A DNA stretch of 64,000 nt from Candidatus Freyarchaeum deiterrae. Its GTDB lineage: Archaea > Asgardarchaeota > Jordiarchaeia > Jordiarchaeales > Jordiarchaeaceae. Shown here piece after piece: positions 26,972-61,839 of this stretch. A program made the position numbers and the translations under genes. Location of the stretch: the NCBI GenBank assembly GCA_037305845.1, contig CP147778.1, forward strand, positions 1-64,000, written 5' to 3'. How positions within the stretch are numbered: position 1 is the stretch's first letter; every line of letters starts with the position of its first letter. Below the pieces are notes generated by a model. The model worked only from the letters and a program-made list of their open reading frames with translations, had not been told where the DNA came from and made no database searches.

Positions 26972-27571
26972 CTAATTTTTCTTCATCTTCCTCAGCTTTT
27001 GCATTGCCAGACCCAACTGGTTCTCCTTCAACCCTGAAACAACCAAAATATGCGGATCCTCCACCCTGACCAATGTGTAACCGTTCTCCCCGTGCACGAC
27101 GTATTCCTCAATCTTTCCCGTAGAGAAGGTCTCCGAAATCTTTCCAGTTTTTTCAAGAGCCTCAACGATTATTCCACCAATCTCATGCGCCTTACTATAC
27201 CTTAGTTTGCTAGCTTTAACTTTCCCATCCATGTCCACAACTGCGATATCTAATCCACTCGAAAATTGCAACCTCTCAATAATTTCATTAAGAAACGATT
27301 GTCCCTCCTCCAATTCAGCTAACTCGGCCTCCGCACCCTTCCTTATGATGTAGATGGAGACCTCGCCCTCCTTACGCTCTTCCAAAATCTGGCTTTCAAC
27401 CTCTTTGAACAGAGATTCAAAGTCACCCTTGATACTGGGATTCATGGTAAGCACTTTGAGGGTTTCACCCGAGTTCAATTCGCCTAATTCTTTCTTGGTC
27501 TTCGCAGTGCACACTACAGTGTTCAGTTCCCCACAATAAAGAACCCTATTAACCGACTGGTCATCTTTCAT
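26972..27571 (-). CDS. Degenerate TusA-like domain fused to a Roadblock/LC7 domain
   Basis: N-terminal ~80 aa align to the adjacent TusA (DQSVN.VL, GE.LKVL, YI.RKGA) but lack CPxP. C-terminus has AVVDMDG.V.AS, V.GENGY and NQLGL, as in Roadblock domains. Confidence 0.7.
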   Translation of the reverse strand: MKDDQSVNRVLYCGELNTVVCTAKTKKELGELNSGETLKVLTMNPSIKGDFESLFKEVESQILEERKEGEVSIYIIRKGAEAELAELEEGQSFLNEIIERLQFSSGLDIAVVDMDGKVKASKLRYSKAHEIGGIIVEALEKTGKISETFSTGKIEEYVVHGENGYTLVRVEDPHILVVSGLKENQLGLAMQKLRKMKKN

Positions 27572-27968
27572 AACAATTCACAACCAATTGCCATTTTTCA
27601 TATAAAGAAAATAACCAGATGTATATAAACTTATCACAAATTTTTGTTAACTATTTAATAGAATAAATAAAACCTGAACACCACAACACCTCCACCAGAA
27701 ATTTAGGAGAACCGAAAACAGCAAAAAGCACACATAACACCCAGAAAGATGAAAAAGCACCAAAAAAAACCCGAAAAACCCACTTTCCAGAACAAATCTC
27801 CCACAAAATACAAAAAAGAATTATCATGATTCGAAACACTAGAAACAGGTTCCCCAACGTCGAACAGACACAAAGAAAACATAAGATACAACCAAAGAAG
27901 CAAAAGCGAACACAAAAAACCCTCCCCACTACTCGAACACATTTAAAAAGAACATGCATTTTTTCCAG

Positions 27969-28040
27969 TGTTCGAGTAAACCCTCCCAAAAGAAGCCTTT
28001 ATAAGATTCTAAATCTAAAAATAAGTAATATAATATAACC
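27969..28040 (+). promoter_or_regulatory. CRISPR leader (array 1)
   Basis: AT-rich, with AGAAGCCTTTATAA BRE/TATA-like box, abutting the first repeat; homologous to 40055-40126. Confidence 0.8.
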
Positions 28041-31000
28041 CTTGCAAAAGCAGTTCCTCAGTAACGAGGATTGAAAGCTTCGACTCCTGGAGAATCTTAA
28101 TGATAAGACCAGAACTGTACTTGCAAAAGCAGTTCCTCAGTAACGAGGATTGAAAGACGTTCTTGCCCATGTGGCCCACATCGTGGAGGCTCTTCTTGCA
28201 AAAGCAGTTCCTCAGTAACGAGGATTGAAAGTCCACCAGATTCAAGAAACCATCAATTAAAAGCTGCTGGTCTTGCAAAAGCAGTTCCTCAGTAACGAGG
28301 ATTGAAAGGTTTGAACTTTCCTGGTCATGCGCGAATCTGCAGTTGCTTGCAAAAGCAGTTCCTCAGTAACGAGGATTGAAAGAAATTCCTGAATGCAGTG
28401 ACTGAGACGAAGAAAGAGGACTTGCAAAAGCAGTTCCTCAGTAACGAGGATTGAAAGAACCTTTGAGTGAGCATTCTCAATCAGTTTGAAGTCAACTTGC
28501 AAAAGCAGTTCCTCAGTAACGAGGATTGAAAGTCCAAGATGTTTTCTTCGGAACCGCAACACTCTTGGTGACTTGCAAAAGCAGTTCCTCAGTAACGAGG
28601 ATTGAAAGACAATCACAGTCTTCCCCTCAAGGATCTTGCCGATAATCTTGCAAAAGCAGTTCCTCAGTAACGAGGATTGAAAGGGGTCTGTGTGTTTTTG
28701 GTGTATTACTATTGGTATATTACTTGCAAAAGCAGTTCCTCAGTAACGAGGATTGAAAGTCAGAAGCAGGGAGATGTGGAACCCAAGCCGCATCGACTTG
28801 CAAAAGCAGTTCCTCAGTAACGAGGATTGAAAGTTTTTTACTTGTGTGAGGTTTGGTTCCTTTTTTTGGTTCTTGCAAAAGCAGTTCCTCAGTAACGAGG
28901 ATTGAAAGTCAAACAATCCGACATCGAAGAACTGGGCCTCTATTTCCTTGCAAAAGCAGTTCCTCAGTAACGAGGATTGAAAGAACCAGGAGTATTAACC
29001 ACCAGTATAAAGGCGATATCCGCTTGCAAAAGCAGTTCCTCAGTAACGAGGATTGAAAGTTTCTTTTAGAACTCGTTGGCATTGAATAATTTTCTTTCCT
29101 TGCAAAAGCAGTTCCTCAGTAACGAGGATTGAAAGAAATGTAACTGATGCGATTTTCCAGATTTTTTATTTATTCCTTGCAAAAGCAGTTCCTCAGTAAC
29201 GAGGATTGAAAGTCAATTTGGCTCGCGAACCAAGAGCAAGTGATGTTTTCTTGCAAAAGCAGTTCCTCAGTAACGAGGATTGAAAGAAACGATAGCTTGT
29301 ATGGTTTAAGCTACGTCTACAACACTTGCAAAAGCAGTTCCTCAGTAACGAGGATTGAAAGACGTAACCCTCCCCGCGATCTGCGGCATCGGCAGCATTA
29401 CTTGCAAAAGCAGTTCCTCAGTAACGAGGATTGAAAGCAGTCATCGCACTTGTAGACCGCAACAAATGGCTGCCTTGCAAAAGCAGTTCCTCAGTAACGA
29501 GGATTGAAAGACTTTGATTTTCTGAATGAAGGTCTTCATTTTATCGCTCCTTGCAAAAGCAGTTCCTCAGTAACGAGGATTGAAAGTAAATATAGGTGAT
29601 CAAATTCCCGACTTTATCGTAACTTGCAAAAGCAGTTCCTCAGTAACGAGGATTGAAAGATTCAAAAGTACAGAGATTGAAAAAAATTTAGAGGAACTTG
29701 CAAAAGCAGTTCCTCAGTAACGAGGATTGAAAGAGACAGATAATGTGAAGAAAGGAAACAGGTTCACTATGGCTTGCAAAAGCAGTTCCTCAGTAACGAG
29801 GATTGAAAGTTGAAGAATCTCACTGAGGTTATCTTCGCGTATCCTACCTTGCAAAAGCAGTTCCTCAGTAACGAGGATTGAAAGTCTTTATATTCGGAGG
29901 CTGTGAGTCGTGTTTTTAAGACTTGCAAAAGCAGTTCCTCAGTAACGAGGATTGAAAGCTTCCTGTTTTGTGTTGTTGGTTGTAACTTGTTTCGACTTGC
30001 AAAAGCAGTTCCTCAGTAACGAGGATTGAAAGAACTCTACCGATTATTTTCCAAAGCAACTCACTAAACACTTGCAAAAGCAGTTCCTCAGTAACGAGGA
30101 TTGAAAGGCGATCGCTGGGTCGAGCTCAAACGGTATATTATAGCTTGCAAAAGCAGTTCCTCAGTAACGAGGATTGAAAGCGAGATTCCCCATCCAGCAC
30201 CAGCTCGAGACACAATGAACTTGCAAAAGCAGTTCCTCAGTAACGAGGATTGAAAGATAGATAATTTTGCAGATAAAGAGTGTGATTTGTTTTTCTTGCA
30301 AAAGCAGTTCCTCAGTAACGAGGATTGAAAGCGTTCCCTGCACACGACCACTCATACGTAGGAAAACCACTTGCAAAAGCAGTTCCTCAGTAACGAGGAT
30401 TGAAAGGAGAGTGGGGAAAGATATGATGAGTTTGGAGGAGACTAGCTTGCAAAAGCAGTTCCTCAGTAACGAGGATTGAAAGTTCTTATCTATATCAACC
30501 ACAAACCCTAAACCTAATCTTGCAAAAGCAGTTCCTCAGTAACGAGGATTGAAAGTCGAAACGTGACTAAAGCCTTCCTCGATGTCTTCAATACTTGCAA
30601 AAGCAGTTCCTCAGTAACGAGGATTGAAAGTAAACCGAGTCACTGTAAGGCTGAAGAACCCAAGTACCGGCTTGCAAAAGCAGTTCCTCAGTAACGAGGA
30701 TTGAAAGTTAACCCAACTAAGGATTCTCTTAGTCGCTGCATCGCAACTTGCAAAAGCAGTTCCTCAGTAACGAGGATTGAAAGGAGTTTGCAGAGCTTCA
30801 CGGACACCACATCTTTGGTTCTGCTTGCAAAAGCAGTTCCTCAGTAACGAGGATTGAAAGTCAGTATTTTAAGCAACTCTTTAACATTGTATAGTGACTT
30901 GCAAAAGCAGTTCCTCAGTAACGAGGATTGAAAGTGGAATGGTTCTGCTTTTCATAGCAATAATTGTTGGACTTGCAAAAGCAGTTCCTCAGTAACGAGG

Positions 31001-32866
31001 ATTGAAAGTTACTTCTTTCTCAAAATCATGTCCTTTCTTTGTTGCGCTTGCAAAAGCAGTTCCTCAGTAACGAGGATTGAAAGATTAGAACCGAGCCAAC
31101 CATTAGAAGGCCACCCATAACTTGCAAAAGCAGTTCCTCAGTAACGAGGATTGAAAGCCCTCACAAGCAGCATCCAAGATTCTATCGCTCGACTTGCAAA
31201 AGCAGTTCCTCAGTAACGAGGATTGAAAGTAATATAGGAGCTATATTCCCTTAATCTTTCTCTTTTCTTGCAAAAGCAGTTCCTCAGTAACGAGGATTGA
31301 AAGGAACATTGTCAACCAAATAGAGATCAGCCACGAAGACTCTTGCAAAAGCAGTTCCTCAGTAACGAGGATTGAAAGAATGCTTTCGTGGGGGTATTTT
31401 CTGTCTGAAAGCAGCGTCTTGCAAAAGCAGTTCCTCAGTAACGAGGATTGAAAGTTTTATTCCCTATTTTCCAATCATTTTATTTATTTACTTGCAAAAG
31501 CAGTTCCTCAGTAACGAGGATTGAAAGCCCCACAGAAAACTATGAGGTTAGGCCGTCTCCTAGTCTCTTGCAAAAGCAGTTCCTCAGTAACGAGGATTGA
31601 AAGAATCAGCCTCTTATGTGGCGGCTAAAAAAACAGCAGGACTTGCAAAAGCAGTTCCTCAGTAACGAGGATTGAAAGATAACGCTATCACCGGCGTACA
31701 GCCGACCTACGGTTACTTGCAAAAGCAGTTCCTCAGTAACGAGGATTGAAAGTCTGCTAATTTGGTGAGTCCAAACCCAAATTAACCCGACTTGCAAAAG
31801 CAGTTCCTCAGTAACGAGGATTGAAAGTTCTACGACTTCTTGTTTGTTGGCATAAAAAGAACATTCTTGCAAAAGCAGTTCCTCAGTAACGAGGATTGAA
31901 AGTCAGGGGAGATGCAAACACTGAAATGGTGGTTACCGGTACTTGCAAAAGCAGTTCCTCAGTAACGAGGATTGAAAGCTTATCTGTGAAAGAGGAGCTT
32001 GTGAAGTTACTTGTTCTTGCAAAAGCAGTTCCTCAGTAACGAGGATTGAAAGATACTAAAACTGTAAATAAAACAACCATATTCCTAGTATCTTGCAAAA
32101 GCAGTTCCTCAGTAACGAGGATTGAAAGAAATCAGGTACGCCGCCTTAACCACTTCCCAGGATCTTGCAAAAGCAGTTCCTCAGTAACGAGGATTGAAAG
32201 CATCAGTGGATCCACTGAACAAGTCGTTGGTTATAGCTTGCAAAAGCAGTTCCTCAGTAACGAGGATTGAAAGCTACAGAAAATACTGGAGTACTTCCCC
32301 GAGATCATGAACTTGCAAAAGCAGTTCCTCAGTAACGAGGATTGAAAGAGTATCACCAGAACTCTAAGCGTTACTGCGAAGTGGCTTGCAAAAGCAGTTC
32401 CTCAGTAACGAGGATTGAAAGTTTCATAAGGGTGAGGTTTTCGATGCTTTGTACATTTCTTGCAAAAGCAGTTCCTCAGTAACGAGGATTGAAAGCGAAC
32501 TCCAAGGCGTTTGATGTCGGCTCAAGCCTCGGACTTGCAAAAGCAGTTCCTCAGTAACGAGGATTGAAAGCAAGAATCCGCAGAATCAAGCCAAACATCC
32601 CTCGGAACTTGCAAAAGCAGTTCCTCAGTAACGAGGATTGAAAGTTAATATCATCAATCTTATCAACAATTTTAATTTTACTTGCAAAAGCAGTTCCTCA
32701 GTAACGAGGATTGAAAGAAATAATTAATACTAGGTATAGGATTATTATTTAATGCTTGCAAAAGCAGTTCCTCAGTAACGAGGATTGAAAGGTACTGCAC
32801 CACTGTAATTCCATGCCGATGTAGTAGACCTTGCAAAAGCAGTTCCGCAGTAACGAGGATTGAAAG
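28041..32866 (+). CRISPR. CRISPR array 1: 65 repeats and 64 spacers; repeat CTTGCAAAAGCAGTTCCTCAGTAACGAGGATTGAAAG (37 nt)
   Basis: Identical 37-nt repeats with ~35-42-nt unique spacers (manual count), TCCTC/GAGGA hairpin and ATTGAAAG 3' handle. Last repeat carries T>G. Confidence 0.98.
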
Positions 32867-33154
32867 TCGAATCAAATAACCACTTTATATCAGCTTTGTA
32901 CAAGTCTACTAATTGAAAATAAAATAAATAATGTGAAAATTATATTAAATGTGAAATAAAATTGTCTTTATATCTGAGAATAATTCTTTTAGTATATGCT
33001 TTTGAAGTCTCAACTTTACAAAAAGGATTATTGCGATGAGATTATGTTCATGCTACGTTTGAATCCTCGAATCAACCTAATACAGCTTGTATTACTGTTT
33101 TGGTCTTTTGTGGATTATGTTTGTACCTGTGGATGAATCTTTGGAGAAAGTTAA

Positions 33155-35179
33155 ATGCAATCCAGCATCACCCCTGAACACATAATTCTTGGTGCTTTCC
33201 TTCATGATTTAGGCAAGGTAATCACTAATTACCTTAATGAGCATCCTCATTTTAAAGAGATTATAAATAGGTATAGTGGGGTAAAATATAAGCACGCGCT
33301 CATAGGTGCAGACCTTTTAAGAGAGTATGGTTTTCCAGATTCCGTAATTTCTGTTGTAGTTAATCATCATGAAATTATTGATCAGCATTTAGCTTTACCT
33401 AATGAAATATGCAACGTTATTAAAGCAGCAGATCATCTTGATGCTAGTCACAGAGAGAGAATTGAATCTGATACTATTAAGGGGCGACTAATAAGTAGCG
33501 CTGAAGCAATAAATATGAGTATAGTGACTGTGCATAACCGCGATGTTATGGAGTTTTTAGATAAGATGCTTAGGGAATTAGGAGAAGTTTTAAAGAGTAA
33601 TTTCGATAAAAGCATTAGCCTTGTTGATGCTATGATGAGAGAGATAGCTATTCATCTAAGATCTGATCAATCTGATCCATACATATCACTTTATGCTCAT
33701 TCAAAATTTGTAGCAGCTTTAACGAGCTTAAAAATCCAAGACTCGAACTGTGTTCCGTATTTGGTACTGGTGAAAACTAGAATAGAAGATATGGTTAATT
33801 ATGCTACAATCGATGTCTTTGAATATCTTGCTGGACTTTCTTTATATTCCTATTTTGGATTACTTGGAGTCATGTCTTTAATTCTAAGAAGGAACCATTT
33901 GCATCCTGATATTCATATAGTTTCAGAGTCTTCCACAGAGCTTATGGCTATTATTCCAAAAAATATTTTAAAAGAATTTTTAGAAGAATTACAAAAATTA
34001 GCGAACGATTTAAACTGTAATATAGATATAGAAATGGGAGCTATAGATCAGGGTAAATACAAGTCAGAAATTGTGGATACTCTTAAACCACAATACAAGG
34101 TGATGTTACTAGCAAATACTTCTACATGCAATATTTGTCACACTCCGATAAGCGATACAAGATTAATTACTGAATTAAAACGAGGTTTTAAAAAACTAAT
34201 AGTATGCGAATATTGCATTCGAATAATTAACATAAATAGATTGTTAGCGAAAGGTAAAATGTATAGTCTAGTTGAAGGCTGTGAAGGGCTAATACTATAT
34301 CCCAAATTAAACATATGCGTTATAAATCACAATAATCAGGGGTACGCTTTAGTTACAAGAACATTCAATCCTAATTTGGTAGACACTTTAGATGCGCCTA
34401 TAATTGATATATATGTTAACGATTTTAGAAAAGATATTAGATTAATTGGTGCGATCTCTTTTGCAAAGTGTGTGAATAGTATTAAAGAGCAGGAGAAATT
34501 ACATGAACTTTTATCATTCTATCAATTTGCGCCATACTTTCTTTCTAAGATTTTAAATGAATCAGATACGCATTCATTAGAAGTAACTTCAAGTTATGGA
34601 GTTTTCCAGACTAAGTATCTTAGTGAAGTATCTAAGTTACTTAGTAAAATCTATACCGATGAACTAAATCAAACAACATTAAGTATAGTTAAAATGGGAA
34701 CCCCAGGACTTTCTTATCAAAAATTGAAAACACTTGTCTCCAAGGTTGATAGAATTCCAAACGCGGTTTTGGCTATTCATAATGATCTTAATGTATTAAC
34801 ATTAGGCGATATAGAGGTTATCTCTATGGTAAAGTCTAGGTTGGGTTATTATGATGTGAAAGAACTTTGTAGAAGGCTATTACGAACAAGAGAATTTATT
34901 GAAGGCTATCTTAACGCAATTGAAACCGGAGATATCGTTGAAAAATATTATTTAAAATCAGAGATACTTCTTAAAATTAGTGAGATGTGTGTTGAAGAAA
35001 AAGAAGGCTCAAAGGAGAACATGGATTGGATATTTGATATCAAAGTATATCCTGCAGAAGAGGTCAATGGTTCTATAAATATGGATACTCTCTCTGAGTT
35101 ATTCGAAGATGTAACTGTCATTAAAGCCATAGTTAAAATGTTATATCTTGAAGATTTTATAATGGGTGTCCTAGCATGA
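33155..35179 (+). CDS. cas10: Cas10 large subunit with HD nuclease and degenerate Palm (no GGDD)
   Basis: GAFLHDLGK, HALIG, NHHE and ADHLDASHRE HD motifs; ISLYAHSK; CNIC..CEYC Zn finger; no GGDD in 674 aa. Confidence 0.8.
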   Translation: MQSSITPEHIILGAFLHDLGKVITNYLNEHPHFKEIINRYSGVKYKHALIGADLLREYGFPDSVISVVVNHHEIIDQHLALPNEICNVIKAADHLDASHRERIESDTIKGRLISSAEAINMSIVTVHNRDVMEFLDKMLRELGEVLKSNFDKSISLVDAMMREIAIHLRSDQSDPYISLYAHSKFVAALTSLKIQDSNCVPYLVLVKTRIEDMVNYATIDVFEYLAGLSLYSYFGLLGVMSLILRRNHLHPDIHIVSESSTELMAIIPKNILKEFLEELQKLANDLNCNIDIEMGAIDQGKYKSEIVDTLKPQYKVMLLANTSTCNICHTPISDTRLITELKRGFKKLIVCEYCIRIININRLLAKGKMYSLVEGCEGLILYPKLNICVINHNNQGYALVTRTFNPNLVDTLDAPIIDIYVNDFRKDIRLIGAISFAKCVNSIKEQEKLHELLSFYQFAPYFLSKILNESDTHSLEVTSSYGVFQTKYLSEVSKLLSKIYTDELNQTTLSIVKMGTPGLSYQKLKTLVSKVDRIPNAVLAIHNDLNVLTLGDIEVISMVKSRLGYYDVKELCRRLLRTREFIEGYLNAIETGDIVEKYYLKSEILLKISEMCVEEKEGSKENMDWIFDIKVYPAEEVNGSINMDTLSELFEDVTVIKAIVKMLYLEDFIMGVLA

Positions 35180-35538
35180 ACCAGAATTTTCCCTCTTTAG
35201 TTAATTTTTGCGAATTCGTAAGAAAGTTGGAACTTGATAAAGCAGCTGAAATTGTTGAAAAGGCAGCAAAAGAACTAAACAGAATCCAAGGTGTAACTCC
35301 CGCATCGTTATCGAAATTAGGAGTATTAATGAACAGAGAGGTACATGATAAAGTAGATATTGCTTTATTAAAAAGCGAGATAATGGACTTGAACCTATCT
35401 ATGATCTCAAAGGCTCTTGCTGAGGCAATGGAACAAGCTGGCTTTGAACCACAACTTATAAATAAACTTAGGAGGCTTGTTCAAGCCTTAGTAAACTTTT
35501 ATAAATATTATATTGGAGATAAAGAAGGGGTGATATGA
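35176..35538 (+). CDS. csm2: Putative small subunit (Csm2/Cas11-like)
   Basis: 120-aa alpha-helical protein ending ALVNFYKYY, lying between cas10 and csm3. Confidence 0.65.
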   Translation: MNQNFPSLVNFCEFVRKLELDKAAEIVEKAAKELNRIQGVTPASLSKLGVLMNREVHDKVDIALLKSEIMDLNLSMISKALAEAMEQAGFEPQLINKLRRLVQALVNFYKYYIGDKEGVI

Positions 35539-36465
35539 ATGGGATTTCTCTTATTAGTAGTATCGGGGAAAACCAATGTTGATGGAATAACGATAGGATC
35601 TACAAGAGGAGATCCTCAGGCTCGCTTAGATTTAAAGACAGCGTTTAAGCCACATCCGAAAGTTCAGGGGATTCGCAAGGAAATACCTTACATCCCTGCA
35701 TCTTCATGGATCGGTGTTATGAGACATTTACTCGAAAAATATTATAATTTACCAGCGCAAACGCCACGAATCAGTAGAAGGCCAAACGATACAATCGTTG
35801 CACCAATTCATGAATGTGAAACTAAAGATGAGGTTTTAAAATGTCCTGTCTGTAAAATCTTTGTGAGACGTGAAGTTGTTGCATGGTTTGGTGATATGGA
35901 ACCCTTTGGTTCCTCATATATGGTTAACAAAGGAGCTATGGGCGGCGAGTACATAATAGACTCTGAAACCAACAAAGAAATCGTAAAGGTATTCATTAAA
36001 GATGAGGTAATTATACCACGAGATGCTGAAAGCGTCAGTATACCTAAGCAAATCGCAAAATCTAAACTAGCGTTAACTAGCAGTGGCAATGAAGTAAAAG
36101 GAGAAGAACTTGTGAAAAAAGGTTTCAAATTAGAGCCGATACCCCGACAGGTTCAAGTTGTAAGTGGTATATTCAAGTTTGATACAAAATTTGCTATGGA
36201 TAAACTTCTCTTCGATGATCTTAAGACCTTCTTCATAGGATTAGGTCTCGTAGAGGATCGTTTTGTGGGTCGCAGAGGATCCCGTGGATATGGAAGGATA
36301 GAGTTTGATGATCTTACATTTAAGTTGCGAACAAAAGAATTCTATGAGGGCAAAGGAGAAGAAATAACAATAAAAATACCTCACAAGAAACCTAGGGATA
36401 TAATCGCTAACTGGAAAAATATTGGGGAAACCTATGAGCAAGCTATTCCTAGTGCCTCAGAGTGA
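35539..36465 (+). CDS. csm3: Cas7-group RAMP (Csm3-like)
   Basis: GITIG, PYIPASSW.G..R.LLE, CPVCKIF and G-rich loop VGRRGSRGYGRIEF. Confidence 0.85.
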   Translation: MGFLLLVVSGKTNVDGITIGSTRGDPQARLDLKTAFKPHPKVQGIRKEIPYIPASSWIGVMRHLLEKYYNLPAQTPRISRRPNDTIVAPIHECETKDEVLKCPVCKIFVRREVVAWFGDMEPFGSSYMVNKGAMGGEYIIDSETNKEIVKVFIKDEVIIPRDAESVSIPKQIAKSKLALTSSGNEVKGEELVKKGFKLEPIPRQVQVVSGIFKFDTKFAMDKLLFDDLKTFFIGLGLVEDRFVGRRGSRGYGRIEFDDLTFKLRTKEFYEGKGEEITIKIPHKKPRDIIANWKNIGETYEQAIPSASE

Positions 36466-36484
36466 AGTAAATAATATAAAATGA

Positions 36485-37306
36485 GTGGTAATAGATATGT
36501 CGGTACCTCAAAATGTACTAGTAGAACTTGAGTTTACTTCACCGGTGTTTTTTCAAAGAAGTTGGCATGAAAGACCTTGGCGTATTCCTAGTGACTATAT
36601 TGTAAGAGCATTAGTATATTCATATGCATTATTACATAATGAGCCCAAGGAATTTTTGGATACCATTAATAAAGATTTAATTAGAATATCCTCTCTTTTA
36701 ATATTTCATAAGAACAACTTGTATGTTCCAATTTCTGGAATACGTGGATACAGACCGATTGATGGTAGTGATGTTATAGATTCGATGGATATTATGGGAA
36801 CTATCTCTAAAGTTCGTATCCCAAGAATTGAAGAAGCTGAACCTACTCCCTACGAAGAATATGTACTAGAAACATCAAAATACAAATGGGGTTTAATAAT
36901 TTCTTCCATGGATAACAAGCTTACAGAAAAGATTCTTCCAACTCTTAAAGTACTTGGAGACCTAGGAATTGGTGCAAAAAAGACCAAGGGAGGAGGAAGA
37001 TTTGACTTGCTATCTGTCCGACCACTTAAAGATTTTAATTTAGATGTCCACTGGAATGGATCAGGCATACTTATCTCGAGATACATACCATCAGTAAGTA
37101 AGAACTTACCCACTAAAATAAAAACCTTATATCAAGAAAGAGTTCAAATACGTTACAGTGAAAAAATTGTATATGAGTTCATGTCTATAGCCGAAGGCTC
37201 TGAATTAGAAATAGCAGACACAGGAAAGGTAGAGATCGTAAAAAATGACTTGGAATATGATACTCCATTATATTTCAGACCCTTATTATTGAGTTATGAG
37301 ACTTAA
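36485..37306 (+). CDS. csm4: Cas5-group RAMP (Csm4-like)
   Basis: LEFTSP, IPSD.I..AL, KVRIPR and G-loop GIGAKKTKGGGRF. Confidence 0.75.
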   Translation: MVIDMSVPQNVLVELEFTSPVFFQRSWHERPWRIPSDYIVRALVYSYALLHNEPKEFLDTINKDLIRISSLLIFHKNNLYVPISGIRGYRPIDGSDVIDSMDIMGTISKVRIPRIEEAEPTPYEEYVLETSKYKWGLIISSMDNKLTEKILPTLKVLGDLGIGAKKTKGGGRFDLLSVRPLKDFNLDVHWNGSGILISRYIPSVSKNLPTKIKTLYQERVQIRYSEKIVYEFMSIAEGSELEIADTGKVEIVKNDLEYDTPLYFRPLLLSYET

Positions 37307-37321
37307 TTACACATTGAATGT

Positions 37322-37511
37322 TTTTGGAAAGAATCTCATCAGTAAGAGTACTGAAAGATATCGGAAATGTAGGTAGTGTAGCTTACTGAAACGTTTCTTG
37401 TAAAAGCAGTTCTCCAGTAACGAGGATTGAAAGTAATGAAATACTAAGATCGTGAAACCTAAATCCCAAAAAATCTTGCAAAAGAAGTTCCGCAGTAACG
37501 CGGATTGAAAG
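37322..37511 (+). CRISPR. Degenerate mini-array (3 repeats at 37322, 37397 and 37475; 2 spacers)
   Basis: TTTTGGAAAGAATCTCATCAGTAAGAGTACTGAAAG; CTTGTAAAAGCAGTTCTCCAGTAACGAGGATTGAAAG; CTTGCAAAAGAAGTTCCGCAGTAACGCGGATTGAAAG; separated by 39- and 41-nt spacers. Confidence 0.8.
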
Positions 37512-37654
37512 TTAATTTTTTTGTCTGTTTTTGGAGTCACCTTAATGAAGTGTTAGCTTAAGTAGTCCTTAGCGGTAGGAATGTAACGACTAAGCTTTTT
37601 TAGAAATTATAGTAAGAGGAGATTTTTGTGTGGTTGGGCTTAGGTGGCTTTGAG

Positions 37655-38092
37655 TTACTGGTCGGTTTTTTCGTAGAATTTTTTTATGAATCTTTGGCTT
37701 GGGTTGTGGACGCTTTTCGCGTTTTCTAGGGCTTCTTTGGCGTCTTTTTCGTCGAAGAGTTCGCTTGCCGGTTTTCCGTCTTTTTCGATGCCGTAGACGC
37801 TGGGTATTCTTTTTAGTGAGAGTTCTCTTGAAATCTGCCTTATTTTTGGTATCTCTTTTTTGAACCATTCGGGGAAACTGTTGCTATAGTATTCCAGGAT
37901 GTCGCCTACGTCGTGTACTTTGGGATATTCCACTCCTAGTACTCTTAGACACGCTTTTAGGGATAGTTCCACACATTCTTGGGAGTATCTTACAGTGTCG
38001 GGGTAGTCGCCTCTTCCGAGTGCGGACTCGGCATCAGTGAGTCTGCTTTTCGCCCGCCGGAGGAAGTCTATGGCTATGCTGTCGGTTCTCAG
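37655..38092 (-). CDS. HEPN domain protein (partner of wHTH-MNT)
   Basis: Frame extends upstream of the called GTG to CTG 38092, overlapping the MNT stop. Motifs SQECVELSLKA.L, PKVHDV and R.PSVYG. Confidence 0.8.
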   Translation of the reverse strand: MRTDSIAIDFLRRAKSRLTDAESALGRGDYPDTVRYSQECVELSLKACLRVLGVEYPKVHDVGDILEYYSNSFPEWFKKEIPKIRQISRELSLKRIPSVYGIEKDGKPASELFDEKDAKEALENAKSVHNPSQRFIKKFYEKTDQ

Positions 38093-38829
38093 AGCTCGAT
38101 CACCTCACCTTCTTTCACATGGTCTTTGAGCTGCCAGTACCAGTCTCCTTTTGGGGTGATGCTTTTTTTGGCCCCCATCTCCTCCAGTTTTTTCTTTAGC
38201 TCTGAGAGCACGTTTTTCATAAAATTGTTTCTGTCGAATATTATCAAGGAGTCTGTGACCATGTCGAGGTAGAATGGTTGGTTCACACGGGCTTCCTCGG
38301 GCGTTAGTAAAACTGTATTTACGTTGGGGAACGCCCCGCTACTTTTCCATAGGGAGAGCTTAGTGGCGGTCAGCTCCTCGAAGAGGCATGAGGCATCTCT
38401 GACTCGTTCACTGTAGCTTTCGGGTAAGCCTTTTACCACTGTAAGGAAGTCTAGGTCGCTGTTCTTTCCGGCTTCACCGCGCGCAACCGAGCCGAAGAGC
38501 ACAACGGAGAAGACCCGACCATTGTACTTCTTGAAAAACTCGCTTACGAATCGCCGAATAAGGGGAATATACTCCCTCTGCCTTATCCGGCTCATCCAAC
38601 TATCGTCCACTACGCCGAGAACAATCATCATAGGATCCAACGCGCTGTATACCCCTCTGCCCCTCCTTTCGATATAACCTGCCTTGTGGAGTCGGGAGAG
38701 TAGAACTCTCAAATTTTGCCCCTCAAGGTTTAGCTCCTCTTTGAGCTTCTCTATAGTAAAGGGTTCGCTGCCGTAGTTGAGATATATCTTCGAGTAAAAC
38801 TGGCCGAGCCACGCAGGAACCCACATCAT
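38089..38829 (-). CDS. wHTH-fused minimal nucleotidyltransferase (MNT) antitoxin
   Basis: N-terminal wHTH (LSRLHKAGYIERRGRGVY) and LFGSVARG..SDLD MNT motif. Confidence 0.85.
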   Translation of the reverse strand: MMWVPAWLGQFYSKIYLNYGSEPFTIEKLKEELNLEGQNLRVLLSRLHKAGYIERRGRGVYSALDPMMIVLGVVDDSWMSRIRQREYIPLIRRFVSEFFKKYNGRVFSVVLFGSVARGEAGKNSDLDFLTVVKGLPESYSERVRDASCLFEELTATKLSLWKSSGAFPNVNTVLLTPEEARVNQPFYLDMVTDSLIIFDRNNFMKNVLSELKKKLEEMGAKKSITPKGDWYWQLKDHVKEGEVIEL

Positions 38830-39174
38830 ATAATCACCTACTTATTAATAATTACCAAATAGTACACTAATTTAAAAGCCTTGCTCCAAAGTGACAAAAT
38901 AACGTAAAGTAGAATGATTCAACCAAGAAACACATGGCTATCTCTAAGCCCGGCCAGCTTAGTTACATCTAGTTAATTTCAACGTTTGTGGTTCAACATA
39001 TTTATCACAATCGAGCAGTTTTAAGGATACGCGTCTAATACTCTGGAATTTTAAGGGATAAACAAGAAAAAATAAAAACAAGAACGATGCCAAAATAAGA
39101 GAGAAGATATTCCTACAACTAGTTTTACGATACATTATGGAGGGAGAAGGAACATAATCGACCTCTGGATAGAA

Positions 39175-39987
39175 ATGGTCGCCACAGACTCCGGAAGAGT
39201 GAACCCCTTCACCGGACACCTCGTAAGAGGAGCCCTGCTGAACCTAATCAAAAACGCCGACCCCGACCTAGCCCAAAAACTCCACGAACCCCACCAGCAG
39301 AGACCCTACAGCGTCACACCCGCCGCACCCGTAGCCCACCAAAGAAACATACGCGAAAACCTCTGGTGGATACAGCCCGGAGAACACGTAAGATTCCACG
39401 CCGGATTCCTACAAGACCACATAGGAGAAAAAGCCTTCCAAAAAATCCTAGAAGGCAGGCCGGAAATAAAACTCGCAGAAACCCCCTTCACACCCGTGAG
39501 AATAGAACTCAAGAGGACAACGTACGAAGAACTGATGAAAACCGCCCAACCAGAACCCGTAATAACCATTAGGTTCCACTCACCCACCCAGCTCCCAATA
39601 ATAGGAAGAGACTTCCCCCTATTATTCCCAGACCCAAGATACGTGTACGGAAACCTAGCCCGACTATGGAACCAAAACGCACCACCACAAGTACAGGTAG
39701 ACACCCAGCAGCTACACGACTGGATAGAAAAAAACGTCTACATACGCAAATACCAACTACAAACCAGAGAGATAGACGTAGGAAAACAGGTAAAACTCGC
39801 AGGATTCACAGGAACCCTAGAATACCACCTAAACAGCACAGATGAATACGCACCTTGGATAAACATACTCACACGGTACGCAACCACAGCCAACACCGGA
39901 GCCAAAAGAACCACCGGAATGGGAGCCACACAAAAAATAGAACACACCAAACAAAACCAAAAACAAACACCAAAAGAAAATTCCTAA
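39175..39987 (+). CDS. cas6: CRISPR endoribonuclease Cas6
   Basis: LHE..QRPYSV, F.SPT, GF.G...Y and C-terminal GAKRTTGMG G-loop. Start may be ATA 39154. Confidence 0.9.
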   Translation: MVATDSGRVNPFTGHLVRGALLNLIKNADPDLAQKLHEPHQQRPYSVTPAAPVAHQRNIRENLWWIQPGEHVRFHAGFLQDHIGEKAFQKILEGRPEIKLAETPFTPVRIELKRTTYEELMKTAQPEPVITIRFHSPTQLPIIGRDFPLLFPDPRYVYGNLARLWNQNAPPQVQVDTQQLHDWIEKNVYIRKYQLQTREIDVGKQVKLAGFTGTLEYHLNSTDEYAPWINILTRYATTANTGAKRTTGMGATQKIEHTKQNQKQTPKENS

Positions 39988-40054
39988 ACGTCAAACCAAA
40001 CTACAAAGAGACCAGAACAAAATGGCCAAGCAAAACAAGAAGAACTATTTAAAA

Positions 40055-40126
40055 TGTTCGAGTGAACCCTCTCAAAAGAAGCCTTTATGAGACTCCAAAA
40101 CAAAAAATAGATAATAAAATATAACC
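40055..40126 (+). promoter_or_regulatory. Second CRISPR leader, homologous to 27969-28040
   Basis: TGTTCGAGT.AACCCT..CAAAAGAAGCCTTTAT...AATATAACC, the same 72-nt distance to the first repeat. Confidence 0.8.
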
Positions 40127-40238
40127 CTTGCAAAAGAAGTTCCTCAGTAACGAGGATTGAAAGTAGCGTATTGCTCAGTTGTCGGGATCCAAATTGTCGA
40201 ACTTGCAAAAGAAGTTCCTCAGTAACGAGGATTGAAAG
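40127..40238 (+). CRISPR. Mini-array, 2 repeats and 1 spacer, with its own leader
   Basis: Two identical CTTGCAAAAGAAGTTCCTCAGTAACGAGGATTGAAAG repeats (C>A variant) flank a 38-nt spacer. Confidence 0.9.
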
Positions 40239-40312
40239 TGTAAATATGCGACAAATCCATGATGTAATTATATTATAATTTAATAATATTATAAAATTTT
40301 GGATTGAGTCAT

Positions 40313-40750
40313 TTATTCTAAAAATTCTTGAGGAGTAGAAAGATTGAGTTCTGGTATTCTTTCAAAGTGTTTTTTATTTTTAGTTATTAAAATAAGTTTT
40401 GTTATTCTCGCCTGTGCACCTATGAAAACATCTCTTATCTCTAAGGGCGACCCTTTCTTTTCCAACTGTACGTAAATCTCTGATGCCTCAATTGCTGTTT
40501 GTTCATCAAAAGAAAGTATTTGTGTGTGACTGAAAAGAGTGTTTGCTTCGCTCATCGCTTTTTCGGGTTGAGGGCTTAACCTAGTTCCGCGATAAATCTC
40601 AAAAACCGTTACAGCACTCACGTAAGCCGCATATTGTCGTTCATCTATCTTGTTGAATATTTTAACGGCTTCGGGTTGGGGTTTGCGCTTAAGATAATCA
40701 ATAATAACATCTGTATCAAGCATTATTTTTTGGGTTTCCATGTTTTCCAC
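40313..40750 (-). CDS. vapC: PIN domain toxin (VapC)
   Basis: LDTDVIID, VTVFEI, RDVFIG and T.N.KHFERIPEL motifs. Confidence 0.9.
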   Translation of the reverse strand: MENMETQKIMLDTDVIIDYLKRKPQPEAVKIFNKIDERQYAAYVSAVTVFEIYRGTRLSPQPEKAMSEANTLFSHTQILSFDEQTAIEASEIYVQLEKKGSPLEIRDVFIGAQARITKLILITKNKKHFERIPELNLSTPQEFLE

Positions 40751-40959
40751 ATCCGTCTAGCATCATCCATAAAGTCCTCTGTACTTTCTATATGCTCCCA
40801 TGCTCCAGCAAGCTCCTTGAGGGAGGGGGATTTGATAAAAACAATTTTACCCTCCTCTTCCTTAACTATCAATTCGTCACCAATTTTCACATCTATCTTT
40901 TTTCGAATCTCTAGAGGAATAGTGATCTGAAATTTTCTTGTTACTTTAACCTTCAACAC
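40723..40959 (-). CDS. AbrB/MazE/SpoVT family antitoxin
   Basis: KVTRKFQITIP.EIR....GD.L motif; overlaps vapC. Confidence 0.9.
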   Translation of the reverse strand: MLKVKVTRKFQITIPLEIRKKIDVKIGDELIVKEEEGKIVFIKSPSLKELAGAWEHIESTEDFMDDARRMWKTWKPKK

Positions 40960-41192
40960 GAGACCTCCGTACTACATATAGTAGTACGAATATATAAAAA
41001 CCTGCTTATCAACCCCTACCTAGAAGTCTTAACCATATCTAGCACCCCCAATAAGCTTCAACTTGTAACTACTTTTTCAGTATGAATTTCTTACACTTTG
41101 TTTTCGTTTATTTTGAAAATTTTTGAGCCAGTGTTTAGAGTTATTGCTGTTTTCCATTTATTCATAACTGAACACCACCATTTTTTATTTTA

Positions 41193-49670: not shown

Positions 49671-50939
49671 TTGAGGCTGGATGAAGTGATTCTTGATATT
49701 AAAACTCCAATATGGACTGGTGACATTGACTCAAAAAGCAATTCGCTTAAATCTACAGGGATTATGGGTTCTATTCGCTGGTGGGTTGAAGCAATCTTGA
49801 GAGGAATGTATAATTTTGCTTGCGATCCCATAGATGACAATCCCCAAAGCCTAACAAAACGTTGCCCAACAACAAAAGAAAATAATCGAGAAATTTCTCA
49901 GTATTGTTCCGCTTGCCTCATTTTCGGAGCAACGGGAATGAGAAAGCTGTTTAGATTGCATATTGAGGGAGGACATGAGATATTTAATGACAGACCAATC
50001 AAGATAATGCCAAAAGGTAGAACTGGAGGATGGTACTTGGGAAGTGGACTTGGTGGAGAAATAAACCTAGATATTATTTCCTTAGACAAGGATTTCGATA
50101 AAAGTCTAATTTCTGTTCCTCTAACTATTACAGCCAAATTGGGTGCAATAGGGGCGAGAACCCAAAATGGCTATGGTATAGTAGAACTCAAGGAATTTCC
50201 AGAAATAAAAATTGAGGATTTCAAAAATTCGGTGGGTAAAATTACAGATACCACAAGACTTGCTAAATTGAAGATTGATGTAAGAAAAGAAGTAAGACAA
50301 GAAAACTGTATATCTTTACCGAATATAAAAGAGATGTTTTTTGCCAAAATCCAATTTGAGGCAGATAATGATTGGTGGAAGGAAGTAGATGGAATAGAGG
50401 AAAGAGGGCAAACGGGAGATAGAGATTATTATGAAGGGTGCGCTAATGATGCAAGAATGCATAAGTGGATAGATTCTGGTTCCGTTCCTATTGTTCCGGC
50501 GATAAAGAATTGGTTAAGGTATGGTTATGGAAAAAGCCTCTGGCAAACGGGAGATCGAAATAAAGACAGAATAATAGATAAATGGCTATTTGGAACTATT
50601 AGAAATGATAAAACCGCCTCTAAAGTCATCATCTCCTGCGCGTACCTTGTGAGTAATAACATATGGGAATTTCGTATCTGGGGATGGATTCCTGAAAATA
50701 GCTTACCAGATGAATTTGATAGAGAAAATTTTTTGGACAGCTTGAATAAAAGTTTAGACGGAAAGGGTTCAGCAAAACTTCCGTGGAAAAATATTTTTGG
50801 TAACGGTACCAAAGAACATAGACTTTCAGTTTGGCGAGAATATAATTCATCGAGAGATACTGTTAAGTCAGGTGAGGAAGGTATTGATAACTATCTTGGA
50901 AGCCTTTTAAGTGGCGGGAGGAAATTCAATGAATCATAA
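49671..50939 (+). CDS. cmr1: Type III RAMP Cmr1
   Basis: TPIWTG, GIMGSIRWW.EAI.RG, C..C.IFGATG and GAIGARTQNGYG motifs. Confidence 0.9.
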   Translation: MRLDEVILDIKTPIWTGDIDSKSNSLKSTGIMGSIRWWVEAILRGMYNFACDPIDDNPQSLTKRCPTTKENNREISQYCSACLIFGATGMRKLFRLHIEGGHEIFNDRPIKIMPKGRTGGWYLGSGLGGEINLDIISLDKDFDKSLISVPLTITAKLGAIGARTQNGYGIVELKEFPEIKIEDFKNSVGKITDTTRLAKLKIDVRKEVRQENCISLPNIKEMFFAKIQFEADNDWWKEVDGIEERGQTGDRDYYEGCANDARMHKWIDSGSVPIVPAIKNWLRYGYGKSLWQTGDRNKDRIIDKWLFGTIRNDKTASKVIISCAYLVSNNIWEFRIWGWIPENSLPDEFDRENFLDSLNKSLDGKGSAKLPWKNIFGNGTKEHRLSVWREYNSSRDTVKSGEEGIDNYLGSLLSGGRKFNES

Positions 50940-52074
50940 ATACGACTTTTATGCAGCTTTTTATATCAAGGAAAAAGAGGATGTCGATAATCTAACTAAC
51001 GGTTCTGGAAGGTATGATGAACTACGTGATATTTTATCAAGAATAATGATTTTGAGTACAGCGCTAGGGGTAAAAGAAAAGTTCGATGACCGTAAGGGTA
51101 GACCAAACGAAATTAATCCTAAAGATTATGCGAGGGTAGGTGAGGGTAATCATGTCTCAGGTTTAAAGGCTCTTACCCATACTAATGGAAACTTCAATGA
51201 GTATATAGCTTGCAAATTATCTGAACTTGCTCTTTTAGGTATTAATGCACCAATTAACGTTTCTATTCTGCCAATAGGAAGTTGGGTTTTAGAGTTTCCA
51301 ATTACTCTTACTAAGCCTTTCATTTCAAAGGATGACGTTCCATTATATATCATAGATAATCCTATAAAGAAAGACAAGGTCTTTGGTGTACCCTTTACCT
51401 CAGCGATGGCATGGAAGGGGAACCTAAGATGGACTATGATGAAATTTCATTTAGAATCTCATATAAACGAGCCTAATAAATTTGCTGAAATACGCCTCAA
51501 GCATACACTTTTGTTCGGAACAGAAAAAGGAACAGAAGATGTACCAAAGGGATGGGCGAAATATCTAGATAAACTTTGTCCCAATGCAAGGGAAAACTAT
51601 CAAGATAAACTCAAGAAAAAATTTGGAAGGGACGATATACCCAATCTTGCAGGAATGCTTCACTTTTATCCTACTTTTTGGGACAGAATTGATATGGAAG
51701 TTATTAATCCACATGATAGAAAAACCAAAACTGGCAAGAACCCTATATACTTTGAAGCCGTGCCAGAGGGTTCAAAAGGCCTCTTTAGGCTTCTCTATAT
51801 TCCTTTACACTGGACTAATCTGCGAGATGACGAGTTTAAGAAAATGATTTTACAGGATTTAAGAGATGTCGTAGCTGGGCTTAAAGAGATGTTACTTTTC
51901 TATGGCTTTTCAGCAAAGAAGTCCATAGGATATGGAGTAATTGAAGACAGCTTTGACAAAGAGGTAAGTACGCTTGCGTTGAAGGATTTTATCAGAGGTA
52001 CTGAAAAATTTGGGAACCTTGAAGAATTGGAGAACAAAATTGAGAGCTTCGTTAGAGGAAGAGACTATGAGTGA
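50911..52074 (+). CDS. cmr6: Type III RAMP Cmr6
   Basis: L.KPFISKDD, WKGNLR, EVINPHDR, PIYFE.VP and GFSAKKSIGYG motifs. Confidence 0.85.
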   Translation: MAGGNSMNHKYDFYAAFYIKEKEDVDNLTNGSGRYDELRDILSRIMILSTALGVKEKFDDRKGRPNEINPKDYARVGEGNHVSGLKALTHTNGNFNEYIACKLSELALLGINAPINVSILPIGSWVLEFPITLTKPFISKDDVPLYIIDNPIKKDKVFGVPFTSAMAWKGNLRWTMMKFHLESHINEPNKFAEIRLKHTLLFGTEKGTEDVPKGWAKYLDKLCPNARENYQDKLKKKFGRDDIPNLAGMLHFYPTFWDRIDMEVINPHDRKTKTGKNPIYFEAVPEGSKGLFRLLYIPLHWTNLRDDEFKKMILQDLRDVVAGLKEMLLFYGFSAKKSIGYGVIEDSFDKEVSTLALKDFIRGTEKFGNLEELENKIESFVRGRDYE

Positions 52075-54817: not shown

Positions 54818-55806
54818 AAGTTGGGGGTGAAAATATGAATGAAAATATGCCTAAAACAAAAACCTATTATTTGTTAACCCTTGATCCAGTCCATATTGGA
54901 ATTGGAGGGGCAAGATTAGGAAGGGTAGATTTACCTATAGTTAGAGAACCAGGAACAAATCTGCCAAAAATTCCTGGTACAAGCTTAAGCGGGCCCGCAA
55001 GAGCATATACTGCCATGGCAAGAAATAAATACAAGTGGAAAGATGAAAATGGTGAAGAGTATTACTGCGCAGGTCGTGGTGGTGAGGGAGGCGAAAACCA
55101 CTGTGGCAAAACTAATCCAGCTTGCCCTGTTTGTATTCCTTATGGTTTCTCAAAAGGCTCTGGAAACAGTATGCAGGGATTGGCTCAGCTCTTCGATGCA
55201 CTAATTCTTTTCTTTCCAGTAGCGTCAATGATCGGACCAGTGTGGGTGACCTCGCCTATGGCAATGGGAGGCCTTCTAAATGACAAATTTCAGGCACCTG
55301 AAGACGGTTTCTACCCTTTAGATGAAAATCTCAAAATCAAAAGCAGTTTAAACTTTGGATGGATTATGTTAAAAAAAGTAGAGAGGAATGTGAATAATCC
55401 TACTTTCGAGCTGGACAGCAAAATTCCTGAGATGGTTAGACAGCGTTCCGTTCTAGTTTCTGATAAACTTTTTTCATTTATTGTAAATAGCAACCTTGAG
55501 GTCAGGACTTCTGTAAGTATTGACCCAGCTACTGGAGCTGCAGAAAGCGGAGCACTTTTTACTTATGAGGCGATTCCGAGAGGCGCTATCTTGCGATTTG
55601 AAATAATTTACAGTTCAGGAAAAATTTTCAAAATTGGAGAGCAGGAACTAAAAACAGAGGAGAATGGTGATGTTGACCCTGCGTGGGTTAGAACACAAGT
55701 GGAAAAGGGATTGGCCCTTTTTGAAACATTAGGGATAGGCGGAATGAACACTCGTGGTATGGGAAGAATAAAAGTGCTTAATCTCGAAGAACAAGGAGGT
55801 GCTTAA
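54775..55806 (+). CDS. cmr4: Type III RAMP Cmr4
   Basis: DPVHIG, VDLPIVREP.TNLPKIPGTSL.G, GALFTYEAIP and GIGGMNTRGMG motifs. Start probably 54835. Confidence 0.9.
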   Translation: MFKLASASQKNQTIKVGGENMNENMPKTKTYYLLTLDPVHIGIGGARLGRVDLPIVREPGTNLPKIPGTSLSGPARAYTAMARNKYKWKDENGEEYYCAGRGGEGGENHCGKTNPACPVCIPYGFSKGSGNSMQGLAQLFDALILFFPVASMIGPVWVTSPMAMGGLLNDKFQAPEDGFYPLDENLKIKSSLNFGWIMLKKVERNVNNPTFELDSKIPEMVRQRSVLVSDKLFSFIVNSNLEVRTSVSIDPATGAAESGALFTYEAIPRGAILRFEIIYSSGKIFKIGEQELKTEENGDVDPAWVRTQVEKGLALFETLGIGGMNTRGMGRIKVLNLEEQGGA

Positions 55807-56221
55807 TATGGGAAAAAATTTGGACAAGCTTTGCGCAGACTTCGGGAATAAGTTAGCTTGTGGGGTTTTCAAAGCATTTAACAATGACGCAGATAAGGCT
55901 GAAAATTTAATTTTAAAAGCATTAGATGTGCTTCAGGAGCAGGGAATTTATGCATTTACACTCTTTTGTGAATCTAGAGGAGACTCCGAAAAGAAAGGGG
56001 CGCAAATATTGGAATCAATTGCAGAAGAACTCCTTAGAGATAAGCTCTCATTTATCGGTAATGGTGATTTGTTGGAAGAAATCAGAAAAGATGGTGGTTT
56101 AGCTTCAGACATTGAAAATATTATTTTTGCTATTCAAGTGTTGGAGAAAACTCTTGTTTATGGTCGTTATCATGCAAAGGCAATGAAAAAACCTAAAATT
56201 ATTGGAGAAAAAACGATATGA
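55799..56221 (+). CDS. cmr5: Small subunit Cmr5 (Cas11)
   Basis: Helical; AL.VLQEQGIYA and LEKTLVY.RYHAKA motifs; lies after cmr4. Confidence 0.75.
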   Translation: MLNMGKNLDKLCADFGNKLACGVFKAFNNDADKAENLILKALDVLQEQGIYAFTLFCESRGDSEKKGAQILESIAEELLRDKLSFIGNGDLLEEIRKDGGLASDIENIIFAIQVLEKTLVYGRYHAKAMKKPKIIGEKTI

Positions 56222-58648: not shown

Positions 58649-58667
58649 AAAAATTTACATATTGACA

Positions 58668-61142: not shown

Positions 61143-61839
61143 CTTTGTAGAATTCTCCTTCTTTGATTTTCAATTCCCTTGCATTCATTTCGTACAGAAT
61201 ATCAACATATTCTTGAACTACCCTATCTTTGTTCATGACCATGGGTATTCTTTCTAGTCCATATATACCATCTTCTACCACTATTTCCATCCTGTCTCTT
61301 CTTATAACAGAATGAATTTTTTCCTCTTTACTAGTCTTTTTTAAAACAATATTCTTAAATTCTCCAATAAAACTAAAATTGGCTATTAATCCACTAATGC
61401 CTAAATAAGGTGTATAGAAAGTTTTGTGATTCTCCAAGAATTCTTTTAATTCATCATAAAGTTTTCCGTTTTTTAACCAAACATATATCCTATATTCGGG
61501 ATTTTTCACAAATTCAAATGGTATAAGTGTACGTGGATTTTCTTTAATGTCCCAAAGATAAAATCCTCGGCTGGTGTCTATTAAGCTTAAATTTATTCTT
61601 ACCTTTTTAATTGGTTGTAAGATTCTTATTGCAAATTTAGCATTCTCTTTAGAAAAAAATTCATAATACGAATCCCTCTCTAGTCCAACCACTGCCGATA
61701 CTATTCCTGATAATGCTGTTACTGTGGGTATTGAGTAGGTTAATGGAGATGTTGTTGTTTCAATTCTTCTGAAATGTGCATAATCTCCCCAAATGTCAAA
61801 TACTAATACTTTATTTACTTGCGGCATAGTTGTCATCAA
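61114..61839 (-). CDS. cas5: Type I-B Cas5 (Hmari-type)
   Basis: VFDIWGDYAHFR, SPLTYSIPT.TAL.G and YTPYLG motifs. Confidence 0.92.
   Translation of the reverse strand: MMTTMPQVNKVLVFDIWGDYAHFRRIETTTSPLTYSIPTVTALSGIVSAVVGLERDSYYEFFSKENAKFAIRILQPIKKVRINLSLIDTSRGFYLWDIKENPRTLIPFEFVKNPEYRIYVWLKNGKLYDELKEFLENHKTFYTPYLGISGLIANFSFIGEFKNIVLKKTSKEEKIHSVIRRDRMEIVVEDGIYGLERIPMVMNKDRVVQEYVDILYEMNARELKIKEGEFYKVGEENIVFL

Follow-up and report, generated by a model that had tools for sequence, protein, structure and literature searches.

A reduced Csm-type operon, probably cyclase-dead and HD-intact, at the trailer end of an archaeal CRISPR array

Introduction

Reduced forms of type III CRISPR systems are mostly known from metagenome fragments only; for one of them, subtype III-F, Makarova and colleagues are said to have described in 2020 a Cas10 with an HD domain and an inactivated cyclase. 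The locus analyzed here lies within the first 64,000 nucleotides (nt) of contig CP147778.1 of Candidatus Freyarchaeum deiterrae (positions 1–64,000 of the forward strand, hereafter the window) and consists of four genes just 3′ of a long repeat array in a closed genome of 3.58 Mb. It is very probably a type III effector operon whose Cas10 has a dead cyclase and an intact HD domain. As such it belongs among the reduced type III systems, at an already described grade and not as a new kind of system, and since that grade is known a specialist would not be greatly surprised by it. What it adds is an intact example in a closed genome, where its array, its cas6 and the three effector systems that compete with it can all be surveyed. 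The points of interest are a Cas7 ribonuclease (RNase) apparently kept without signalling, the use of one repeat family by four effector systems, and a position inside array material; the locus also gives a concrete four-protein complex for expression and assay, and a natural case for how several effector complexes share one pool of CRISPR RNAs (crRNAs).

Among the described systems that resemble it, III-F has as its reference locus the four genes Tlet_0097–Tlet_0100 of Thermotoga lettingae (PMC8036902), and is characterized by a Csm2-type Cas11 and by predicted DNA-only targeting (PMC8036902, PMC11127173). In III-H a diverged Cas11 replaces the C-terminal domain of Cas10, and the Cas7 subunit is without a conserved catalytic Asp (PMC10910872, PMC12669027); according to the 2025 classification no III-H locus is found in a complete genome (PMC12669027). 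Type IV-C has the core gene order Cas10-Cas11-Cas7-Cas5, its subunits being of Csf type and the zinc finger of its large subunit bearing an FTD motif (PMC13676074).

A four-gene operon with a complete Cas10

Four contiguous open reading frames (ORFs) of 674, 120, 308 and 273 amino acids (aa) tile positions 33155–37306 of the + strand. All four are intact, with the cas10 stop overlapping the next start, and neither a further + strand ORF of at least 50 aa in the module stretch nor any ORF 3′ of csm4 within the module was found, in agreement with the original prediction (made from the letters of the window) that only four genes are present. The operon and its 5′ flank comprise the following features.

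32867–33154, + strand: AT-rich stretch 5′ of cas10 (288 bp, 27.8% guanine plus cytosine, GC) with GGAG 9 nt before the ATG; presumed promoter region of the operon
33155–35179, + strand: cas10 (674 aa), from HD and Csm1 profile matches, structure model and profile alignment
35176–35538, + strand: probable cas11/csm2-like small-subunit gene (120 aa), start overlapping the cas10 stop, from a weak Csm2 match and operon position
35539–36465, + strand: csm3 (Cas7, 308 aa), from Csm3 profile matches, with a zinc-knuckle insertion and D31
36485–37306, + strand: csm4 (Cas5, 273 aa), from TIGR01903 and PADLOC Csm4 matches

Family profile searches with the first ORF (33155–35179) gave matches to the HD family and to the N-terminal part of Csm1, and beyond the HD region it is not recognized. 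A profile built from nine relatives matches Csm1 chains in the PDB over the HD domain, the DISLYxHS linker and the zinc finger. The AlphaFold2 model computed on the family alignment (predicted local distance difference test score, pLDDT, 80.5; predicted template modelling score 0.81) superimposes on III-A Csm1 structures with Z values up to 23.7 over 576–599 aligned residues, so that III-A, exemplified by the Thermococcus onnurineus and Streptococcus thermophilus complexes, gives the best structural match, and model residues 5–670 align with residues 3–754 of the Csm1 chain. By hhalign the family matches a set of four canonical Cas10s with a probability of 98.8% over 603 columns; against a single canonical Cas10 only the HD region aligns, the four-sequence template being required for the wider alignment. 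Because Cas10 thus aligns with Csm1 nearly end to end, it is complete in architecture and merely about 80 residues shorter. The description of a short Cas10 in the original prediction stands as to length (674 aa), with the correction that the architecture is not truncated: the HD domain, two Palm-like domains, zinc finger and helical C-terminal domain that make up a type III Cas10 are all present.

The two active sites have had opposite fates. The HD residues H17, D18, H47, H72, D93 and D96 are invariant in all nine relatives compared, which share just 23–35% identity, so the HD motifs are intact, as had been claimed. In the hhalign alignment EYLAGLSLY falls on the SGIQxF motif, the Cys pairs (C325 and C328, C351 and C354) on the zinc finger, and S478-S479-Y480-G481 on GGDD; in the model this SSYG coincides with a beta-hairpin. 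Neither GGDD nor GGDE occurs in Cas10 or in any of its 11 relatives (0/12), while the motif is present in 4/4 canonical Cas10 controls. The predicted loss of GGDD is thus confirmed, and with no GGDD or GGDE in any member the cyclase is dead throughout this Cas10 family.

Csm-type backbone and missing partners

The third ORF (35539–36465) encodes Csm3, with matches to the PADLOC Csm3 model (1.1e-20) and to PF03787 (3.3e-10), and its family profile matches PDB Csm3 at 6.6e-21. The best sequence match among solved relatives is the III-A Csm3 of T. onnurineus, including its CxxC zinc-knuckle insertion. Residue D31 is invariant in 19/19 relatives at 45–64% identity; the family-profile alignment pairs it with T. 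onnurineus Csm3 D36, with a drop in score when the D36A mutant chain is used, and MAFFT pairs it with the Asp in the GGID of Pseudanabaena Csm3. By these alignments Csm3 likely, although not certainly, retains the catalytic RNase Asp, in which case the module would not simply be a DNA-only reduced system. The fourth ORF (36485–37306) encodes Csm4 (54.9 bits with TIGR01903, whose cut-off is 55; PADLOC Csm4, 1.4e-17), so that both RAMP subunits of a type III backbone, Cas7 (Csm3) and Cas5 (Csm4), are present.

The 120-aa product of the second ORF is probably a Cas11/Csm2-like small subunit. It gives a weak match to the PADLOC Csm2 model (E 0.016), its nearest clusters in the language-model Atlas are all Csm2 (0.88), it is all helical with five predicted helices, and its gene lies between cas10 and csm3, the place of csm2 in III-A operons.

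No match to Csm5 (TIGR01899) was obtained at E 0.1 anywhere in the genome, which is rated 100% complete; the claim that the module is without csm5 is upheld, and its encoding elsewhere has been checked as well. For Csm6/Csx1 the outcome is divided: none is present in 32867–37511, as claimed, but the genome does encode Csx1 and CARF proteins, confined to a separate III-D locus 2.6 Mb away. Signalling proteins are therefore available in the cell, but as part of another system. That III-D locus (genome positions 2674869–2693200, with the system itself at 2.681–2.693 Mb) has its own cas6, an array of 79 repeats that belong to the same family, a Cas10d matching the Palm2 family, a Csx10-like Cas5 fusion, Csx19, multi-RAMP Cas7s and Csx1. 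Two further effector operons lie inside the window: a complete III-C operon (49671–57114; Cmr1, Cmr6, Cas10c, Cmr4, Cmr5, Cmr3) and a I-B operon (57740–64000, − strand; Cas3, Cas5b, Cas7b), which is adjoined just beyond the window by the only cas1 of the genome (genome positions 65951–66820).

Comparison with described subtypes

With III-A the module shares the gene order cas10-csm2-csm3-csm4, minus csm5 and with a second gene that is probably csm2-like, and, by prediction, crRNAs with an 8-nt tag produced by Cas6; it differs from III-A in having no GGDD, no Csm5 and no linked Csm6/Csx1. With III-F it shares its composition (Cas10, a probable Csm2-type Cas11, one Cas7 and one Cas5, the module being free of adaptation genes), and this four-gene Csm-type set bears out the suggestion of a III-F-like architecture. 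It differs from III-F in adjoining arrays and cas6, and in the catalytic Asp apparently kept by its Cas7, whereas for III-F the prediction is of DNA as the sole target. PADLOC's Cas7_IIIf model has no match in the module, but since it also matches in E. coli it does not discriminate cleanly. A Cas7 RNase that is apparently kept while signalling is lost would place the module between III-A and the DNA-only reduced forms.

The likenesses to III-H are a rare occurrence, mostly in archaeal metagenome-assembled genomes (MAGs), an HD site predicted to be active beside an inactivated Palm, a single Cas7 with Cas5, and the lack of both a cyclic oligoadenylate pathway and an adaptation module. By the published description the module differs from III-H in its invariant Csm3 D31, as against the lack of a conserved Cas7 Asp. 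The III-H type of replacement of the Cas10 C-terminus, on which the published wording is ambiguous, compares here with a separate 120-aa gene and a Cas10 that aligns as far as Csm1 residue 754. Type IV-C is approached in the four-gene order and in the HD-only Cas10-like large subunit with a zinc finger; the module differs in its Csm-type Cas7 and Cas5, in the Cas7 Asp that is apparently kept, and in having no FTD motif (none is conserved between C328 and C351 in the nine-sequence Cas10 alignment). The type IV Cas7 model matches Csm3 at E 2.3e-4 over residues 42–67 only, as compared with 1.1e-20 for the Csm3 model, and no module protein matches Csf3.

Set against the reference systems by description, the module is tentatively placed inside or next to III-F, with a likelihood a little short of even. 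An unclassified branch derived from III-A is possible but somewhat unlikely, and assignment to III-H, likewise compared by description, is unlikely.

Position within repeat material

The module follows CRISPR array 1 (28041–32866, + strand), which consists of 65 repeats of 37 nt with the unit CTTGCAAAAGCAGTTCCTCAGTAACGAGGATTGAAAG. Of these repeats 64 are identical and the last (32830–32866) carries a single change, T18G; control searches of shuffled windows gave 0 matches. The leader (27946–28077) has a copy at 40032–40163 that is 85% alike. Array 1 is likely the main source of crRNAs, and the cas6 gene downstream of the module likely encodes the processing enzyme, acting in trans. The features that flank the operon are these.

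28041–32866, + strand: CRISPR array 1, spacers of 34–42 nt, leader on the 28040 side
32830–32866, + strand: terminal repeat of array 1, T18G, a change that breaks the canonical 5-bp hairpin
37321–37357, + strand: strongly decayed repeat, 3′ 23 nt recognizable, tag ACTGAAAG, about 15 nt past the csm4 stop
37397–37433, + strand: decayed repeat, 3 mismatches, ATTGAAAG tag intact
37475–37511, + strand: decayed repeat, 3 mismatches (A11, G18, C27)
37512–37534, + strand: T-rich tract (T7, T5) directly after the last repeat
37655–38829, − strand: HEPN/MNT toxin-antitoxin pair, convergent, 3′ of the decayed repeats
39175–39987, + strand: cas6, followed by the leader copy and a two-repeat array (40127–40238)

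The block thus starts after the last repeat of array 1 and ends just before a degenerate repeat, as had been observed, the nearest such repeat being that at 37321–37357. The repeats downstream belong to the type of the host, which puts the module inside array material of the host. The repeats at 32830 and 37475, on its two sides, both read TTCCGCAG, in accord with the sharing of one variant that had been reported. They differ in that 32830 has G18 alone, which leaves the hairpin broken, while at 37475 the G18 change is compensated by C27, so that the hairpin forms again in its canonical register. Repeat position 11 is C throughout array 1 (28041) and A in array 2 (78785); in array 3 (2674869) it is T in 70 leader-near repeats and A in eight trailer-side repeats, and most of the scattered decayed repeats have A, so that A is suggested to be the earlier base. 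The repeat at 37397 has C11 and that at 37475 has A11, the order expected toward an old trailer.

The repeat order and the G18/C27 pattern fit a module that split the trailer of array 1, and its insertion there is plausible, with the balance of probability standing about level. The three downstream repeats have no leader and end in the T-rich tract, which possibly serves as the archaeal terminator of a transcript of operon and mini-array; they would then be co-transcribed with the operon. Almost as serious a candidate, if somewhat short of even, is the reading that no array was interrupted and that the three repeats are the remains of a small array which arose by local duplication or recombination beside the operon. 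Up to 48.4 kb the island consists of cassettes separated by repeat remnants, and repeat pairs or singletons also punctuate the neighbouring toxin-antitoxin cassettes (at 40127, 41193, 42744, 44457, 47316 and 48376, and past the window); a leader-plus-repeat unit is duplicated at 40032–40163; at genome position 89804 a third decayed repeat carries the G18 variant as well; and no spacers or trailer sequence are common to the module-side repeats and the other arrays. Local duplication is opposed by the lack of a leader before repeats that begin about 15 nt past the csm4 stop, by their host type with C11 (as in array 1) followed by the older A11, which is the order of an array trailer, and by the contrast between G18 alone at 32830 and G18 with compensating C27 at 37475.

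The two spacers of the mini-array and their flanks have no copy elsewhere in the genome, and among the spacers of the three arrays none is directed at the module. Genomes of the same genus show no synteny at this locus. An Rfam scan over 27500–41000 gave nothing, and a sigma-70 and terminator scan stayed at shuffle level with bacterial models that are inapplicable to an archaeon.

Distribution and origin

An exhaustive HMMER search with Cas10 against 1.84 billion representatives returned 16 matches, about 10 of them full-length, at 23–35% identity, which substantiates the claim that the proteins are highly diverged. Word-indexed searches with Cas10 or the family alignment returned only Cas10 itself and generic HD proteins. 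The only named relatives of Cas10 are MAG proteins of Bathyarchaeia (annotated "HD domain-containing protein") and Thermoprotei ("hypothetical protein"). Relatives of Csm3 are more numerous (28 clusters, 43–64% identity). In five cases relatives of Cas10 and Csm3 occur on equal-sized contigs, and in one MAG they bear the neighbouring locus tags DRN53_01710 and DRN53_01700, which argues for a conserved operon linkage of cas10 and csm3.

Within the phylum of the host, searches of 60 genomes, five of them from the same genus, gave no member of the Cas10 family, and searches of 399 other species gave none of the Csm3 family (E 1e-20). Scans of genome contigs gave no relative of the module, a metagenome scan gave only unrelated HD-domain loci without Csm3 or Csm4, and viral contigs and plasmids hold no close relative of it. 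The GC content of the module (34.3%) falls in the lowest 1.1% of equal-sized genome windows and compares with 49.1% for cas6, 47.6% for the toxin-antitoxin pair and a genome mean of 40.7%. The module is thus more AT-rich than these neighbours, as had been noted, but this is not special to the block: the adjoining III-C (36.8% GC) and I-B (31.4% GC) operons are AT-rich too, so that low GC is here a trait of cas effector operons. The lack of matches among the searched relatives in the phylum, together with low GC, nevertheless indicates that the module was likely acquired horizontally, with the reservation that the III-C and I-B operons share its AT-richness.

Proposed mechanism and alternatives

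The reading favoured here, with moderate confidence in the whole including its mechanism, is a functional-looking reduced Csm-type operon of a rare archaeal family, situated at the trailer end of an array and probably of horizontal origin. Cas6, encoded 1.9 kb downstream, would cut transcripts of the host arrays into crRNAs with the 8-nt AUUGAAAG tag; Csm4 and Cas10 would bind this tag, while a filament of the single Csm3 and the small subunit would hold the guide. Pairing with a complementary transcript would then activate the HD nuclease of Cas10, which would degrade single-stranded DNA (ssDNA), and cleavage of the bound RNA by Csm3 D31 would switch the complex off. No cyclic oligoadenylate would be made, because the GGDD hairpin of Palm2 reads SSYG, and the module would act without a CARF effector of its own.

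Several observations weigh against this reading. A single-sequence alignment set the catalytic Asp of T. onnurineus Csm3 opposite P38 and not D31, and given this disagreement it is the profile and MAFFT alignments that carry the RNase assignment. The AlphaFold2 single-sequence model of the second ORF is poor (pLDDT 54), a fold search with it found no match, and BLASTP detects no similarity between this protein and Halocatena Csm2. The III-C, I-B and III-D systems share the same repeats as those around the module, so that with three other effector systems on them nothing ties particular crRNAs to it. Finally, other public assemblies hold 100%-identical pieces of the same Cas10 (P0009, P0005, P0035, P0034) in which the gene is split by two frameshifts. 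One follows codon 114, where GCG has become TG, and the other lies near codon 346, where the A6 run of 34190–34195 is given as A4. They reflect either errors of assembly or alleles disrupted by decay in sibling populations.

More far-reaching is the proposal that the locus represents a distinct, unclassified type III subtype derived from III-A, which lost cyclase, Csm5 and CARF effector while keeping the HD DNase and the Cas7 RNase, moved between archaeal phyla, shares its crRNA pool with three systems and, through the decayed repeats at its 3′ end, co-transcribes two hard-wired guides; as a whole this is doubtful. Less probable still is a decaying, non-functional III-A remnant, already without csm5, csm6 and cyclase activity and heading for loss. 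The absence of accessory genes, the decayed repeats downstream, the two frameshift positions in other assemblies and the presence of three other complete effector systems speak for such a remnant, but all four ORFs are intact here and the four-part design recurs in relatives whose Cas10 sequences are up to 75% different. The invariance of HD, zinc finger and Csm3 Asp across such diverged relatives points to purifying selection on a stable design and not to recent decay. A type IV-C-like action (recognition of double-stranded DNA through a protospacer-adjacent motif, followed by collateral cutting of ssDNA and RNA by HD, with no guide-directed RNA cleavage) is the least probable, since the shared core order, conserved HD, zinc finger, missing GGDD and archaeal distribution (PMC13676074) are set against Csm3 models that match at 1e-20 over full length (type IV Cas7, 2e-4 over 26 residues), a Cas5 that matches Csm4, an invariant D31 that argues for a kept Cas7 RNase, the lack of a conserved FTD motif between the Cys pairs, and a Csm1-like Cas10 C-terminal domain that is reportedly missing in archaeal IV-C1.

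Additional observations

The HEPN/MNT cassette 3′ of the decayed repeats (37655–38893) is found at 72–77% nucleotide identity in 4/5 same-genus genomes (G002-G005; L039, L040, L041, L036), each copy in a different neighbourhood and on a short contig, and these varying neighbourhoods suggest that the cassette is mobile.

The nine bases that follow the terminal repeat of array 1 (TCGAATCAA, 32867–32875) recur on the same strand at 33067–33075, 80 bp 5′ of cas10. Given this orientation, a crRNA-like transcript of them would be identical to the cas10 mRNA and could pair solely with the bottom strand of the DNA.

The first spacer of array 1 (28078–28119) has 22/23 bases in common with a spacer of array 3, and array 3 holds one spacer twice, with 36/37 bases alike; the array 3 positions concerned in these likenesses are genome 2679600–2679637, 2677292–2677328 and 2680640–2680677. 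At the III-D locus a CARF-PIN gene is split into two ORFs (L043 805–1620 and 1872–2372). Just 5′ of the array leader, the protein encoded at 26972–27571 consists of a TusA domain fused to a Roadblock/LC7 domain.

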